Of a stretch of DNA of 64,000 bases, positions 21,833-29,581 are shown in pieces (the stretch's first letter is position 1; every line of letters starts with the position of its first letter). This DNA is from an uncultured Bdellovibrionales bacterium (GTDB taxonomy: Bacteria; Bdellovibrionota_C; UBA2361; SZUA-149; DAOLCO01): NCBI GenBank assembly GCA_964612555.1, contig CAZTBW010000004.1, positions 123,713 through 187,712 on the forward strand, in the 5' to 3' direction. The notes beneath the pieces were generated by a model. That model worked only from the letters and a program-made list of their open reading frames with translations, was not told where the DNA came from and did no database searches. Both the position numbers and the translations under genes were made by a program.

Positions 21833-21905
21833 GGGGCGTTAGCTCAGTCGGTAGAGCAGCAGCCTTTTAAGTTGCGGGTCACTGGTTCGAATCCAGTACG
21901 CCTCA
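21833..21905 (+). tRNA. tRNA-Lys (anticodon TTT)
   Basis: GGGGCGTTAGCTCAGTCGGTAGAGCAGCAGCCTTTTAAGTTGCGGGTCACTGGTTCGAATCCAGTACGCCTCA; cloverleaf with GTTCGAATC T-loop, anticodon loop CTTTTAA. Confidence 0.9.
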
Positions 21906-22009
21906 CTCATCAAAGTAATCGTCTGTTTTTGGCTATCTTTGTCTCACATCTCATTACCCTATATAAATTATCATTTTATATAAACTTCCCACCTGACGAT
22001 CAATAACTC

Positions 22010-23452
22010 ATGGGGAAATATAATTCTTTTGACTTATTGGTTATCGGGAGTGGTCCCGGGGGACAGAAAGCAGCGATACAGGCTTTAAAGCTTGGAAAAC
22101 GTGTTGCCGTTATCGATAAAAATCCCGCACTTGGTGGAAACTGTCTTCATGATGGTACCATTCCAAGCAAGTCTTTCAGAGAAGCGATCATGCACCTTTC
22201 GGGATATCGGGAGAGAAGCCATTACGGACAGGCGTATCGGGTAAAACAAAATATAGAAATGAAAGACCTTACTGACAGAACTGAATCCATCAGTAAGGAC
22301 ATAGAACAAACTATCAGATCTCAATTACTCAGAAACAAATCTGAACTCATTACCGGTCTTGCTTCTTTTATTGATCCAAACACCGTGCGTGTAGCACATG
22401 AGAATACCGAAAGAATAGTTGAAAGTGAAAAAATAGTAATCGCTACCGGCACAAGTCCATGGAGACCCGACTCTTTTGAATTTGATGGAAAAATAATACT
22501 CGACAGTAACGATATTCTCAGGATGAAAAGGATACCGGGCTCACTCACCGTAGTTGGTGGTGGAGTTATTGGGTGCGAATATGGCTCCATGTTTTCAGCA
22601 CTTGGGGTAAAGGTTTCCATTCTTGAACAACGCGATTCCATTCTAAGTTTCCTCGATAAAGAGATCGTAGATTCACTGACCTATACCCTGCGACAGCAAA
22701 AGGCAGTAATCATAACCGGAGATAAAGTGCTTAAGTGCTGTATCTCTCCTGATGGTCGGGCGGTAACGTATCTTGAGAGTGGCAGAAGAATAGTAAGCCA
22801 GGTATTACTGGTTTCAGCAGGTCGTATAGGTAATGTGGAAGGCTTAAACCTCGATGCTATTGGCGTCGAAGCAAACGCACGGGGGCTTATTTCCGTAAAT
22901 ACCCACTTCCAGACTTCCCAACCTCATATCTATGCCGTGGGTGACGTTATCGGAGTTCCGGCACTTGCATCAACCAGCATGGAGCAAGGAAGAAAAGCAG
23001 CGTGCCATGCATTTGATCTTAACGAACACTATTTTAATATTCCGTTACCATATGGAATATATTCCATTCCGGAAATCGGGATGGTAGGCTCTACTGAAGA
23101 CGAATTAAAAGCTAAAAAGATACCCTACGAAATCGGGATTGCCCGTTTCAATGAGCTCGAAAGAGGAAAGATCATAGGTGACAGGCAGGGGGTTCTAAAA
23201 CTCCTGTTCCACAGAAATACGCTTCAGCTCCTTGGCGTCCATATCATTGGCGATGGTGCAACAGAAATGATTCACATTGGTCAAACCATTATGGGATTTC
23301 AAGGGGGAATCGATTATCTGGTAAATGCCGTATTTAACTACCCAACTTTAAGCCAGGTATATAAAACCGCCGCACTGGACGGGTGGAATAAAGTCGTTGC
23401 GAGCGATGGGCTTCCTGATGAAATTCCTTATATGGACATCGAGCTACACTAA
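22010..23452 (+). CDS. pyridine nucleotide-disulfide oxidoreductase, SthA-like (soluble transhydrogenase / Lpd family, single active-site Cys)
   Basis: VIGSGPGG FAD motif; GGNCLHDGTIPSK (second redox Cys replaced by Thr, as in SthA/UdhA); 480 aa. Confidence 0.7.
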   Translation: MGKYNSFDLLVIGSGPGGQKAAIQALKLGKRVAVIDKNPALGGNCLHDGTIPSKSFREAIMHLSGYRERSHYGQAYRVKQNIEMKDLTDRTESISKDIEQTIRSQLLRNKSELITGLASFIDPNTVRVAHENTERIVESEKIVIATGTSPWRPDSFEFDGKIILDSNDILRMKRIPGSLTVVGGGVIGCEYGSMFSALGVKVSILEQRDSILSFLDKEIVDSLTYTLRQQKAVIITGDKVLKCCISPDGRAVTYLESGRRIVSQVLLVSAGRIGNVEGLNLDAIGVEANARGLISVNTHFQTSQPHIYAVGDVIGVPALASTSMEQGRKAACHAFDLNEHYFNIPLPYGIYSIPEIGMVGSTEDELKAKKIPYEIGIARFNELERGKIIGDRQGVLKLLFHRNTLQLLGVHIIGDGATEMIHIGQTIMGFQGGIDYLVNAVFNYPTLSQVYKTAALDGWNKVVASDGLPDEIPYMDIELH

Positions 23453-23453
23453 T

Positions 23454-23807
23454 CTAAAACATCCCCACACTTCCAAATCCCGCACTGCGACTCCTTCGCT
23501 TGGGCTGGAACTGCTTGGAGATTGACTTTGATGGGGGACGACCTATTGAATATCCAACATTACCCATCGGGGTATCATACTTCTTCACATACTTACCCCG
23601 AACCCTCATACCCTGCCACGAAGGATCGTGTCTGGGCATATAGGAAGGAAGATCATTCTGATACCTCTCCTGACGATACTCTCTGGGAAGAAGCCGTTTA
23701 TCAACAGGACCACCATGAAAAGCTTCCTGACCCACCGCCACAGGAACAGAAATCCCAAAAAAGACAAAAGAAAATATAAATCCTGTTAATCTCACGTAGT
23801 CCATCAC
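23454..23807 (-). CDS. small secreted protein, unknown
   Basis: Signal peptide; Pro/Arg/Tyr-rich 117 aa. Confidence 0.35.
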   Translation of the reverse strand: MMDYVRLTGFIFSFVFFGISVPVAVGQEAFHGGPVDKRLLPREYRQERYQNDLPSYMPRHDPSWQGMRVRGKYVKKYDTPMGNVGYSIGRPPSKSISKQFQPKRRSRSAGFGSVGMF

Positions 23808-23907
23808 GTAATTTATATATACGATACCTTAACACCGTTATGGTTCAATCTCCCGCAAATATATCAAAAATTCTCCAGAAAATAAATTCAATACAGCTAA
23901 CTAACGA

Positions 23908-24058
23908 AAATTATTTAGTTAACCGCAGATGGACGCAGATAAATGCGGATAAGAATAAAAGAATATCTAACAAGCTGCACACCCCTGCAAACACGCACAT
24001 TAAATCAATCCCCCCTTTTTTTCCCATCTGCGTTTATCTGCGTCCATCTGCGGTTAAT
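23908..24058. repeat. inverted repeat with triple 10-bp-spaced GCAGAT iterons in each arm (MITE-like or regulatory)
   Basis: TTAACCGCAGATGGACGCAGATAAATGCGGAT (23908..) and its reverse complement CCCATCTGCGTTTATCTGCGTCCATCTGCGGTTAA (..24058); 26 bp perfect, ~100-bp spacer. Confidence 0.6.
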
Positions 24059-27707: not shown

Positions 27708-27754
27708 AAGCCCCCATTCCTACCAAACAAAACACAGAAGGCACGAACGGGGGG

Positions 27755-27839
27755 GAGAGGAATGTTTTTGTCTGTTTTGCGAAAACTCAAGCGGACCGAA
27801 GGGAGCCATTTGAGCAAAACAGACAAAAACATTCCTCTC
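27755..27839. promoter_or_regulatory. perfect 28-bp inverted repeat (long hairpin) in flagellin 5' leader
   Basis: GGGAGAGGAATGTTTTTGTCTGTTTTGC (27755..27782) and exact reverse complement (27812..27839), 29-nt loop; 48 nt upstream of flagellin ATG; on minus strand followed by U-rich tract. Confidence 0.65.
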
Positions 27840-28109
27840 CCAAGCAGCTACTACCAAACTCAAGACGCGCGGACACCACAGGACGCACGTATCCTTTTGA
27901 AAAAATAGAATGAAGAATGAATTACTACTACTCATCCTTGTACTGCATACTTCCATGTACAAAACCATTTCCGTGGTTTTGTGATTTTAAATACGTAAGC
28001 GTAAACAAACACTTACGACTTAAAGATCGACCTTTTCAGCTTAAGACTTAAGGATTTGGTGAGGTTTTGTAAGCGGCTGTATTTACTGGGATTACTTACA
28101 GATAAACAA

Positions 28110-29456
28110 CTATTCTTCCACCACAACTTCAGTAGGCAGTCGCATGAATACGTGCATTTCTCTTTGGGACGATATCTTGAAAACTACCGCATTAACAATT
28201 CGATCGGTAATTTTATGCTCCCCGTTTTCAAATATACTGACTGAGGTACTTAGAGAATATGACCCCGGATATAAAGTGGGAATGGAGATTATAAATCTGA
28301 GAGTCAGAGTGTCACCAGGGTTACGACGGGGCAGAACACAATTTTCTATCATTGTATGCGTGCTCGCAATATCGAGACCTTTAGAATCACGAAGTATATA
28401 CCCAACAGACCAGGAGGATTTATTGTGATGTGAAATATTTTTAATGGTAAGTCGAAAAACTACTTTTGAGTCCTGATCAACCTCATGAACTATCTCACCT
28501 TTCTCATCATAAAGATTTGCACCAATACAAATCACTTCACCAGAGCCATATCTTTTGTCAAAGTTCGGAAAAGTTGTTTCTCGCAGAGAAAATGGTGACT
28601 CGGTCTCAGAATATGTCACCGCAGATGAAGACTGAGATGAAACAGCTTCAGTATCGATGTCGCTCGCACTACCATTTTCCTGAATACCAAAAAGATGCTC
28701 CAGATATAAATCAGCAACTTCACGAGCATCACCAAGACCTTTTACATGACCTTCGTGAAGCCATAGTGCTCTTTTACACAGGCGTTTAATTGAACTGGTA
28801 TCGTGACTTACAAAAAGGATAGTAGTTCCTCGCTCCTGAAGCTCTCTGAATCTGTTCATACACCGATGAACAAAGTGAACATCTCCAACCGCAAGTGCTT
28901 CATCAATGATAAAAACTTCCGGGTCAATATTTGCCATCACGGAAAATGCAAGACGAACGTACATACCACTCGAATACGTCTTAACAGGCTGATAGACAAA
29001 ATCTCCTATATCGGCAAAAGCAAGGATGCTGTCCAGCCTGGCGTCGATCTCCTCTCTTGATAACCCCAAAATGGCACCATTGAGATACACATTTTCAATG
29101 CCGGTAAACTCGGTATTAAAACCCGCTCCTAGCTCTAAAAGAGCTGAGACACGTCCGTGCACCGAAACACTTCCGCTTGTAGGGTGCAGTATCCCGCAAA
29201 TCAGTTGAAGCAGAGTAGACTTTCCACTCCCGTTCTTTCCAATGATACCAAAAGTTTCACCCTTAGCGACCTCGAAACTGACATCCTTAACCGCATAAAA
29301 ATCAAGGTGAAGTTTTTTTCTGAGAGGATGAATCGCTTCTTTTACCCGGGATGCCCTATCCGGATAAAGCTTGTACGCCTTACTGACGTTCTTACAAATA
29401 ATTGAAGGGGAAGCTTGAATCACTTTATCTGAATTTATTGCAGAGTTTTGCATCAT
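28110..29456 (-). CDS. ABC transporter ATP-binding protein, Wzt/TagH type with C-terminal carbohydrate-binding extension (orphan)
   Basis: Walker A GKNGSGKST, ABC signature, 448 aa with ~200-aa C-terminal non-ABC domain as in Wzt; no Wzm-like permease gene adjacent. Confidence 0.75.
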   Translation of the reverse strand: MMQNSAINSDKVIQASPSIICKNVSKAYKLYPDRASRVKEAIHPLRKKLHLDFYAVKDVSFEVAKGETFGIIGKNGSGKSTLLQLICGILHPTSGSVSVHGRVSALLELGAGFNTEFTGIENVYLNGAILGLSREEIDARLDSILAFADIGDFVYQPVKTYSSGMYVRLAFSVMANIDPEVFIIDEALAVGDVHFVHRCMNRFRELQERGTTILFVSHDTSSIKRLCKRALWLHEGHVKGLGDAREVADLYLEHLFGIQENGSASDIDTEAVSSQSSSAVTYSETESPFSLRETTFPNFDKRYGSGEVICIGANLYDEKGEIVHEVDQDSKVVFRLTIKNISHHNKSSWSVGYILRDSKGLDIASTHTMIENCVLPRRNPGDTLTLRFIISIPTLYPGSYSLSTSVSIFENGEHKITDRIVNAVVFKISSQREMHVFMRLPTEVVVEE

Positions 29457-29505
29457 GCCGTCATAGCAGATAACAATATTAACTGAAAATGCCAGCCGAA
29501 AATAA

Positions 29506-29581
29506 TGGCGTCCCCAGGGGGATTCGAACCCCCGTTGCCGCCGTGAAAGGGCGGTGTCCTGGGCCTCTAGACGATAGGGAC
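29506..29581 (-). tRNA. tRNA-Glu (anticodon TTC), CCA encoded
   Basis: Minus strand GTCCCTATCGTCTAGAGGCCCAGGACACCGCCCTTTCACGGCGGCAACGGGGGTTCGAATCCCCCTGGGGACGCCA; near-identical to canonical bacterial tRNA-Glu. Confidence 0.9.

Follow-up and report, generated by a model that had tools for sequence, protein, structure and literature searches.

Propeller outer domains have already been catalogued in flagellins as the 'WD40-repeats' cluster #55 (Fields et al. 2024, Nat Commun 15:9500, PMC11532411), in which the D0/D1 helices are conserved and a beta-propeller replaces D2/D3, and Bdellovibrio possesses six flagellin genes (PMC2791853). The Wzm-Wzt exporters of O-antigen and teichoic acid combine a nucleotide-binding domain with Wzt_C, a domain that binds modified glycan termini (PMC9445017). 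Proteins with AlbA_2 and HATPase_c_4 domains, usually annotated as 'ATP-dependent DNA helicase RecG' or 'putative DNA-binding domain-containing protein', have homologues in many phyla including Bdellovibrionales.

Genes of all three kinds lie between two tRNA genes in the 64-kb stretch of DNA analysed here (the window), which belongs to an uncultured bacterium of the Bdellovibrionota/Oligoflexia, and the original prediction took the interval to be a tRNA-bounded accessory islet of non-housekeeping genes. All the features that it listed, namely the tRNAs, a small secreted protein, the AlbA_2/HATPase_c_4 protein, the propeller-flagellin, Wzt and the inverted repeats, are present at their predicted coordinates. 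The DNA from tRNA-Lys to tRNA-Glu is nevertheless a normal chromosomal neighbourhood and not an integrated element. An accessory piece does exist (23808-28109), smaller than predicted and not defined by the tRNAs, so that the locus amounts to an unremarkable neighbourhood that has been rearranged and has received a small insertion. It is probable that its present form reflects a conserved frame, an ~8-kb inversion and a lineage-specific acquisition of ~4.3 kb, rather than an integrated element.

The conserved frame and the inversion

The conserved frame consists of tRNA-Lys, sthA, the secreted-protein gene, the orphan Wzt gene and tRNA-Glu; the three protein-coding genes are assigned to it because their gene orders recur in relatives, which are no more than moderately close (57-90% protein identity). 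Its left edge is tRNA-Lys(UUU) (21833-21906, + strand), and tRNA-Glu(UUC) (29506-29581, − strand) points with its 3' end toward Wzt across a gap of 52 bp. Both were identified by ARAGORN and by Rfam, with 70.3 and 58.9 bits, respectively (gathering score 29). In the closest relative found, L076, the order esterase(−), tRNA-Glu(+), Wzt(+), secreted protein(+), sthA(−) and tRNA-Lys is that of the window, with identities of 73, 67, 59 and 90% for the esterase, Wzt, secreted protein and SthA, respectively; the tRNA-Lys gene is truncated at the contig end, with 67 nt aligned and one mismatch. This retention of order goes largely against the predicted islet. Two further genomes (L056/L057 and L059), making with L076 three genomes on four contigs, have the order tRNA-Glu, Wzt, secreted protein and AsmA, with a methyltransferase gene after Wzt in L056/L057. 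The adjacency of tRNA-Glu and Wzt, the latter directly 3' of the former, is kept in all four contigs as in the window.

The soluble pyridine-nucleotide transhydrogenase gene sthA (22010-23452, + strand; NF003585 610.8 bits, cut-off 465) is a housekeeping, core gene, and its product is 74-90% identical in relatives. The upstream block is syntenic, as evident from M42 peptidase-hyp515-coaD-rsmD adjoining sthA in L001-L004 and coaD-rsmD-sthA in L005 and L039. Thus sthA follows this block or a part of it in six relatives; tRNA-Lys was detected in three of them, and adjoins sthA in each (L001, L002 and L005). A candidate role of tRNA-Lys as an island border was rejected, the gene being the edge of the conserved frame. 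The claim that the bracketed genes are non-housekeeping accordingly fails for sthA, as does accessory status for the members of the frame, and holds for the piece with the flagellin and Schlafen-like genes.

The small secreted protein (117 aa; 23454-23807, − strand) is conserved in three relatives, and the ORF is a real gene, restricted to the clade. In the alignment the N-terminus resembles a signal peptide and the C-terminal GFGS.GMF is invariant. Homologues lie directly downstream of Wzt in L076 and in L059 (57%), and after the intervening methyltransferase gene in L056 (63%). Only 5 representative clusters were recovered among 1.84 billion proteins, and no family in Pfam or NCBIfam matched.

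Relative to other relatives, a block of ~8 kb (23453-31509) is inverted in the window. It contains the secreted-protein gene, the insert, Wzt, tRNA-Glu, the esterase gene (29741-30442, + strand), hyp144 (30461-30895, − strand) and a nudix gene (30968-31459, + strand), and both breakpoints lie between convergent gene ends. Four junction types back the inversion. In L002, L003, L005, L006 and L007, sthA is followed by nudix(−) or hyp144(+), which is the block reversed; AsmA adjoins the secreted-protein gene in L059 and likewise in L056, where IS110 lies between them; and the window carries both reciprocal junctions, nudix with AsmA and sthA with the secreted-protein gene, the second being common to the window and L076. 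The two ancestral junctions were not seen together in any single genome compared. This ~8-kb inversion, which at least one relative (L076) also carries, is the reason why the two tRNA genes point toward each other.

The lineage-specific segment

Within the stretch between the tRNAs, only 23808-28109 (~4.3 kb, ends approximate) is special to the lineage and missing from relatives. The segment lies between the secreted-protein gene and Wzt, and contains the flagellin gene, the Schlafen-like gene and three hairpin repeats. At this position L076 has an empty gap of 142 bp and L059 one of 145 bp; L056/L057 carry a single methyltransferase gene there. No residual intergenic similarity was detected at the slot (alignment score 24, shuffle mean 24.7).

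The compositional and tRNA-end signatures proposed as checks did not appear: every gene of the stretch falls within ±1.6 SD of the 63 window ORFs of at least 110 aa in GC, GC3 and synonymous-codon likelihood, and no repeat of the 3' end of either tRNA was found, allowing up to 3 mismatches. No integrase family matched in the inter-tRNA genes or the scanned flanking genes, in agreement with the original prediction. In more distant genomes, an EamA transporter gene (L002) or a gene for an unannotated 262-aa protein (L003) lies 3' of tRNA-Glu, and the surroundings of the homologous region include mobile or selfish genes in L056 (IS110, rve and an HTH_38 protein) and L076 (an MNT/HepT pair); the area is therefore recombination-prone. 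The same variability, together with the location of every non-housekeeping gene on the 3' side of tRNA-Glu, would suit a degraded genomic island, once integrated at the tRNA-Glu 3' end and since deprived of its integrase and attachment-site repeat. However, three other genomes retain both Wzt, which abuts that 3' end, and the secreted-protein gene at these positions, and 1.4 kb, including the conserved Wzt gene, separates the variable slot from the tRNA. With neither an integrase nor a tRNA-derived repeat, and with native composition and codon usage, such an origin is quite improbable.

Native composition would equally be expected if the flagellin and Schlafen-like genes were ancestral at the site and deleted in relatives, the window representing the original state. 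The 60-75% identity of flagellin homologues, similar to the divergence of neighbouring orthologues, also fits long residence in the lineage. Under this reading, however, L076 and L059, whose inversion states are not the same, must each have lost the genes cleanly and on their own, and a methyltransferase gene must have replaced them in L056/L057. The flagellin homologues of L052 and L054 are, moreover, at other sites. One sample yielded both L054 and L059, and should these belong to a single genome, its flagellin lies elsewhere. Ancestral presence is consequently unlikely, and gain rather than loss of the segment is inferred. In the preferred reading of a rearranged frame with an acquisition, the lineage would have gained ~4.3 kb in the short gap that separates the secreted-protein gene from Wzt; this DNA comprises two functionally unrelated genes, each of which is scattered singly in other genomes. 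The source may be intragenomic or a close relative, and the best guess for the route is recombination, either illegitimate or assisted by homology, at a site prone to rearrangement.

The Schlafen-like gene (24243-25580, + strand) encodes 445 aa with SLFN_AlbA_2 and HATPase_c_4 domains (Pfam 60.3 and 59.4 bits) and a C-terminal HTH-like region, the same three-part architecture as the AlbA_2/HATPase_c_4 proteins described; its start, ATG 24243, is fixed by an identical 445-aa database protein (P0243). The product is probably nucleic-acid binding or regulatory. In PADLOC it gave partial matches to pAgo-associated models only and was not part of any defence system. A 55% identical homologue occurs in an unrelated gene context.

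The original prediction of two conspicuous inverted repeats was borne out by the repeat search, which added a third. IR1 (23903-24073; −63.8 kcal/mol, z = −13.8) is a long hairpin-forming repeat located where the secreted-protein and Schlafen-like genes diverge, with 59-nt arms, a perfect core of ~32 bp, a 53-nt spacer and three ~10-bp periodic repeats in each arm. Among the 76 fetched loci it recurs only in a contig from the same organism (L074), and it was not found in viral contigs. IR2 (27753-27841, − strand; −60.5 kcal/mol, z = −9.8), with 33-nt arms (94% complementary), is located 46-134 nt upstream of the flagellin ATG, probably inside a long leader of the flagellin transcript. Neither the fetched loci nor the viral contigs carry IR2, and its Rfam matches were only spurious miRNA hairpins, all below the gathering score. 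IR1 and IR2 are unrelated to each other, and each has one copy in the window; the ORFs at 23840-24232 and 27720-27968 were rejected as artefacts overlying IR1 and IR2. The palindrome IR3 (24164-24227; 25-nt arms; −30.9 kcal/mol, z = −6.6) ends 16 nt before the Schlafen-like ATG and is a candidate operator, by which that inserted gene would be preceded. Long hairpins thus occur near both ends of the insert, an observation that falls outside the proposed account.

The propeller flagellin and the orphan Wzt

The flagellin (678 aa; 25671-27707, − strand; Flagellin_N 115.5, PD40 66.9 and Flagellin_C 64.9 bits) is presumed to be a member of cluster #55, from whose 'WD40-repeats' label it differs in having blades that fit a PD40/TolB-type model. 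Its AlphaFold2 model (mean pLDDT 85.5) has helices at residues 10-130 and 583-677 and repeated four-strand units at ~190-570, and the outer domain is predicted to be a seven-bladed PD40/TolB-like beta-propeller. Foldseek matched the helical core to flagellins and the propeller to TolB or S9 peptidases; no filament with a propeller domain was among its PDB matches. The blades are encoded by 168-nt tandem repeats (26250-27107, − strand; 5.1 copies, 74% matches; Tandem Repeats Finder and repeat family D1).

Homologues of ~680 aa are many, the closest being 65-75% identical (NCBI), and several pairs are listed with contigs of equal length, which suggests a family with multiple copies per genome. 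Those of L052 and L054 (61 and 60% identical), to which the comparison of contexts is confined and which are not among the 65-75% homologues, are in unrelated contexts. A sigma-28-like motif, TAAG-N15-GTCGAT (28026-28050, − strand), 343 nt upstream of the flagellin ATG, is the putative promoter; it is the single match in the window against 0.23 expected by chance, for a pattern picked after viewing the sequences. A similar motif is located 376 nt upstream of the L054 homologue. The inserted flagellin would thus be one of a multi-copy family, probably with a sigma-28-type promoter and a long hairpin-containing leader.

The Wzt/TagH-type ABC ATPase with a Wzt_C carbohydrate-binding domain (28110-29453, − strand; ABC_tran 77.4 and Wzt_C 75.3 bits), whose start was set from an identical 447-aa protein (P0121), has an intact Walker A (GKNGSGKST), an SSGM signature and a Walker B motif, and scores below NCBIfam equivalog cut-offs (e.g., 256.9 bits against 538). 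Its orphan status was predicted correctly: unlike in the Wzm-Wzt exporters, there is no adjoining Wzm permease gene, with no Wzm/ABC-2 family match among the membrane-protein ORFs of the window and none in the four homologous loci (L056/L057, L059 and L076).

The original prediction also linked Wzt, speculatively, with flagellin glycosylation or capsule export; in a wider form, Wzt and the flagellin would be a module for flagellin glycosylation or for the export of glycans. Both genes lie side by side on the same strand, the glycan recognition by Wzt_C (PMC9445017) would suit such a module, and GT87 and GT2 glycosyltransferases are encoded elsewhere in the window. However, all four contexts of Wzt homologues (63-70% identical) are without flagellin and both flagellin contexts are without Wzt; the functional link is unsupported because homologues of each lack the other nearby. 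Furthermore, the genes are 400 bp apart, with the separate sigma-28-like motif and two hairpins between, and neither Wzm nor a glycosyltransferase gene is in the stretch, which makes a joint module highly improbable.

Comparison with mobile and integrative elements

Long, imperfect intergenic palindromes of 90-170 bp with very stable predicted hairpins are common to IR1, IR2 and ERIC/MITE-like elements. The present repeats differ from these in having no second copy in the window and no identified target-site duplication. With tRNA-associated genomic islands and integrative elements, the locus shares non-housekeeping genes 3' of a tRNA and a content that varies between relatives. It departs from them in lacking an integrase, a tRNA-end direct repeat and a compositional deviation; in contrast to such islands, conservation here extends to the gene adjoining the tRNA, and the variable slot is located between two conserved genes.

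Gene order between the facing tRNA genes

The stretch bounded by tRNA-Lys(UUU) (21833-21906, +) and tRNA-Glu(UUC) (29506-29581, -), the left and right members of a facing pair, consists of a conserved frame of genes, an inversion and a 4.3-kb lineage-specific insertion, and is thus a case of ordinary genome plasticity. Both tRNA genes lie where the original prediction had placed them. The frame further comprises sthA (22010-23452, +), a gene for a secreted protein of 117 aa with a signal-peptide-like N-terminus (23454-23807, -) and a gene for an ATPase with ABC_tran and Wzt_C domain profiles (Wzt; 28110-29453, -). 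The identity of SthA is supported by a full-length score of 610.8 bits, above the NCBIfam equivalog cut-off of 465 bits (NF003585), and its relatives place the source among uncultured Bdellovibrionota/Oligoflexia.

Comparison with the fetched loci of relatives (L-numbers) revealed that an M42 peptidase-hyp515-coaD-rsmD block adjoins sthA in L001-L004, that coaD-rsmD-sthA is kept in L005 and L039, and that tRNA-Lys precedes sthA in L001, L002 and L005 (ARAGORN). Since this left-flank block is kept in relatives, sthA holds a conserved position as a core gene, and tRNA-Lys does not mark an island border. In the closest Wzt homologues traceable to contigs, tRNA-Glu has both Wzt and the small secreted protein as fixed neighbours. 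The order in L056/L057 (Wzt 70% identical) is nudix(-), hyp144(+), two extra genes, esterase(-), tRNA-Glu(+), Wzt(+), methyltransferase, secreted protein(+), IS110, AsmA(-) and, further on, tesA(-); that in L059 (Wzt 66-67%) is tRNA-Glu(+), Wzt(+), secreted protein(+), AsmA(-), one gene, tesA(-), ABC(+) and FtsX(+). The closest relative found, L076 (SthA 90% identical), carries esterase(-), tRNA-Glu(+), Wzt(+), secreted protein(+) and sthA(-), and its contig ends inside tRNA-Lys (67 nt aligned, one mismatch). This order is exactly that of the window, which speaks against regarding the whole stretch as accessory. The secreted protein aligns well over four genomes, with an invariant GFGS.GMF at the C-terminal end. 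Its family is very narrow, 1.84 billion proteins yielding 5 representative clusters.

The inversion is supported by the gene junctions. In L002, L003, L005, L006 and L007, sthA is directly followed by nudix(-) or hyp144(+), the order in L002 going on to esterase(-) and tRNA-Glu(+), and the secreted-protein gene of L056 and L059 points towards AsmA. In the window, sthA faces the secreted-protein gene with the stop codons one base apart, and nudix faces AsmA at a distance of 50 bp. These two reciprocal junctions are those expected from one inversion of the nudix-to-secreted-protein block, and both breakpoints fall between convergent gene ends. L076 also has the junction of sthA with the secreted-protein gene, so the window is not alone in carrying the inversion; the model is a composite one, because no single genome has both ancestral junctions. 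This inversion accounts for the present position of the two tRNAs on either side of the stretch.

In relatives, genes of mobile or selfish type are found around the homologous region, namely rve, an IS110 transposase and an HTH_38 protein in L056 (1-4416 and 13233-14150), and an MNT/HepT toxin-antitoxin pair in L076 (594-1532); their presence is a sign that the neighbourhood is prone to rearrangement.

The lineage-specific segment and the tRNA-island question

Only the segment 23808-28109 (4.3 kb) is missing from relatives. The corresponding slot is empty in both L076 and L059, and in L056/57 it is occupied by an unrelated CMAS-type methyltransferase. In L076, the distance from Wzt to the secreted-protein gene is 142 bp, and the locus lacks the flagellin, the Schlafen-like gene and any long hairpin. 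As the empty slot is seen in both inversion states, a gain of the 4.3 kb in the window's lineage would be more parsimonious than its loss elsewhere. Alignment of the Wzt-to-secreted-protein spacers of L076 and L059 to the insert was no better than that of shuffled sequence; the spacers are too diverged for the insert borders to be placed at the nucleotide level. A methyltransferase common to these regions was also considered, and was rejected since the one adjacent to the flagellin in L054 and the one in the slot of L056 are unrelated.

The alternative reading, that of a tRNA-bounded accessory islet, is borne out in part, since a lineage-specific piece of 4.3 kb does exist between the tRNA genes; the frame around it is conserved in relatives and the tRNAs are not its borders. 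An integrase is absent, as had been noted, no integrase or recombinase family being detected with Pfam and NCBIfam in the ORFs between the tRNAs and the flanking genes scanned. No repeat of the tRNA-Glu 3' end occurs elsewhere in the 64 kb, where the 20-22 nt 3'-end segments of tRNA-Glu and tRNA-Lys gave self-matches only (≤3 mismatches). An empty site at the tRNA was not seen in L076, L056/57 or L059, in which tRNA-Glu precedes the same Wzt; the empty site of the relatives is between Wzt and the secreted-protein gene. Nor did composition reveal the deviation that an islet might display, as every gene, the Schlafen-like gene, the flagellin and Wzt included, stays within ±1.6 SD in GC, GC3 and synonymous-codon likelihood for the window's set of 63 ORFs (≥110 aa), and the sole outlier is a spurious ORF over the inverted repeat IR1. 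The segment 23808-28109 bears no mark of foreign origin. These observations correct the reading of the locus as an island: facing tRNA genes around odd-looking genes are insufficient to call one, and here a frame that is otherwise conserved gained the pattern through an inversion and a small insertion.

Hairpins and the Schlafen-like gene of the insert

The two conspicuous inverted repeats of the original prediction are genuine and far beyond chance on folding, with −63.8 kcal/mol and z = −13.8 for IR1 (23903-24073), and −60.5 kcal/mol and z = −9.8 for IR2 (27753-27841). The ORFs 23840-24232 and 27720-27968 were rejected as genes, being mere overlays of IR1 and IR2, with no family match and no homologue in any fetched locus. 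IR1 is located between the divergent Schlafen-like and secreted-protein genes, and each of its arms contains three periodic repeats of ∼10 bp (23919-23953 / 24023-24057), CGCAGATGGA CGCAGATAAA TGCGGATAAG. An origin of IR1 from the flagellin repeat was set aside, the arm matching the LSADGR-coding unit of the propeller repeats (26254-26774) at 15 of 17 nt with a rough chance probability of ∼0.05.

A MITE/ERIC-like nature of IR1 and IR2 would be marked by several copies per genome; within the 64-kb window each is single-copy, and no other copies of them were found in viral contigs. Among the 76 fetched loci, IR1 occurs only in L074 of the same organism, a 1865-bp Logan contig from an independent assembly (SRR16797977) with the flagellin 3' end and an identical Schlafen-like gene. 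The organism is therefore present in a second data set. L074 has one IR1 arm only and apparently breaks inside IR1, probably because the hairpin interrupted the assembly. The flagellin, Schlafen-like and Wzt homologues in the other loci have no comparable inverted repeat beside them, and Rfam at a permissive threshold returned only miRNA-precursor and snoRNA models on generic hairpins, far below gathering scores, and no riboswitch. Besides IR1 and IR2, the 64 kb contain a single long inverted repeat (7157-7310; 32-nt arms, 94% complementary, 90-nt spacer), which is upstream of a periplasmic-binding-protein gene (5964-7016, -) and is unrelated in sequence to either of them.

A third repeat, IR3 (24164-24227, z = −6.6 on folding), ends just 5' of the ribosome-binding site of the Schlafen-like gene. 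This gene encodes an SLFN_AlbA_2 and HATPase_c_4 protein with a C-terminal HTH-like tail, and its start is assigned to the ATG at 24243 because an identical database protein has 445 residues. From its position, IR3 could be a candidate operator for the HTH domain of this very protein. Homologues of the protein range from 62% down to ∼25% identity over many lineages, including Bdellovibrionales. A defence role was rejected, as no PADLOC system matched; the partial matches were to pAgo-associated models only (E = 4e-12, residues 187-315), and no partner genes for them were found.

The placement of unusually long single-copy hairpins near the insert ends is a minor point worth following. By analogy with the single-strand transposition of IS200/IS605-like elements, the 4.3-kb segment might be a hairpin-dependent cassette with a cargo of two genes, in which IR1 and IR2, dissimilar as they are, would act as left- and right-end recognition structures for a transposase supplied in trans from elsewhere; we regard this as very improbable. 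If true, such a cassette would be a route for relocating flagellin paralogues within Bdellovibrionota genomes.

The Wzt ATPase and the propeller flagellin

The Wzt protein is a nucleotide-binding subunit with a Wzt_C domain (ABC_tran 77.4 bits; Wzt_C 75.3 bits, cut-off 30.4) and intact ATPase motifs. It had been described as an orphan, and indeed no Wzm (ABC-2) permease is adjacent. None was found either among the scanned window ORFs with several hydrophobic segments (GT87, FHIPEP, YscJ/FliF, TatC and FtsX types and one without a family), or in L056, L058, L059 and L076. With Wzm absent here and in all four homologous loci, the orphan condition is the conserved state of the Wzt of this clade and no sign of decay; its partner, if any, must be encoded elsewhere. 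A metagenome scan with Wzt yielded only relatives of ≤46% identity, which are useless for synteny; the upstream neighbour in three of them is GDP-mannose dehydratase, which is uninformative on Wzm. In L058 (9942-14467), a Wzt homologue of 63% identity without Wzm is directly upstream of APS-kinase, PAPS-reductase-family and GTP_EFTU/APS-kinase genes, a gene order that may hint at a sulfated substrate for this homologue. The clade-wide fixation of a permease-less Wzt-type ATPase beside tRNA-Glu is a further minor point worth following.

The proposed link of Wzt to the flagellin, through glycosylation or export, finds no support from co-occurrence. Flagellin homologues of 61% and 60% identity stand alone, with neither Wzt nor a Schlafen-like gene in their unrelated neighbourhoods, and a 55% homologue of the Schlafen-like protein is in yet another context. 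The flagellin and Schlafen-like genes are thus not conserved partners, and neither of them is paired with Wzt in a conserved way. The 60% flagellin (L054) and a tRNA-Glu-Wzt-secreted protein-AsmA locus (L059) are on different contigs of the Logan sample SRR27197485; if both belong to one genome, its flagellin is away from Wzt.

The flagellin (678 aa; 25671-27707, -) contains Flagellin_N (115.5 bits, cut-off 26.6) and Flagellin_C (64.9 bits, cut-off 23), so that the D0/D1 helical domains are present, along with PD40 (66.9 bits, cut-off 20.9). Its AlphaFold2 model is confident (mean pLDDT 85.5), in which residues 10-130 and 583-677 form long helices and seven copies of a four-strand unit (pLDDT above 90) occupy residues ∼190-570; tandem repeats of 168 nt encode the blades. 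Among solved structures, a flagellin matches best (E = 5.6e-42); in Foldseek, the helical core matches flagellins and the insert matches TolB / S9-peptidase propellers. In the predicted structure, a closed beta-propeller thus sits between the D1 segments.

A sigma-28-like motif, TAAG-N15-GTCGAT, is located 343 nt upstream of the flagellin ATG (28026-28050, -). No other match occurs in the window, where 0.23 would be expected by chance; this is weak evidence, as the pattern was picked after the sequences had been viewed. A similar motif lies in L054 (about 6588-6612), 376 nt upstream of the ATG of the flagellin homologue. These distances would imply unusually long leaders for propeller-flagellin genes in two genomes, and IR2 would be within the long leader if the motif is the promoter. 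Elsewhere in the window there is a compact flagellar or type-III-secretion-like gene set at 3133-3936 and 9019-13549, comprising FlgO (3133-3936, +), an FHIPEP/FlhA-like protein (9019-10971, -), a FliN_C-like protein (11595-12116, -), a YscJ/FliF-family protein of 262 aa (12076-12864, -) and a sigma-70-family factor of 225 aa (12872-13549, -), which could be FliA-like. A class A bacterial RNase P RNA follows at 14526-14871 (-; 245.5 bits).

The flagellin family is large, with proteins of ∼680 aa and a common architecture. To our knowledge, there is no structural or functional study of propeller flagellins as a large family in Bdellovibrionota, and this family too is a minor point worth following. 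Several pairs of homologues reported on equal-sized contigs suggest several flagellin copies per genome, which is consistent with the six flagellin genes of Bdellovibrio bacteriovorus (PMC2791853). Propeller outer domains ("WD40-repeats", cluster #55) already figure in a survey of the outer domains of flagellins (PMC11532411), and the window flagellin is presumably a member of this catalogued class of propeller flagellins.
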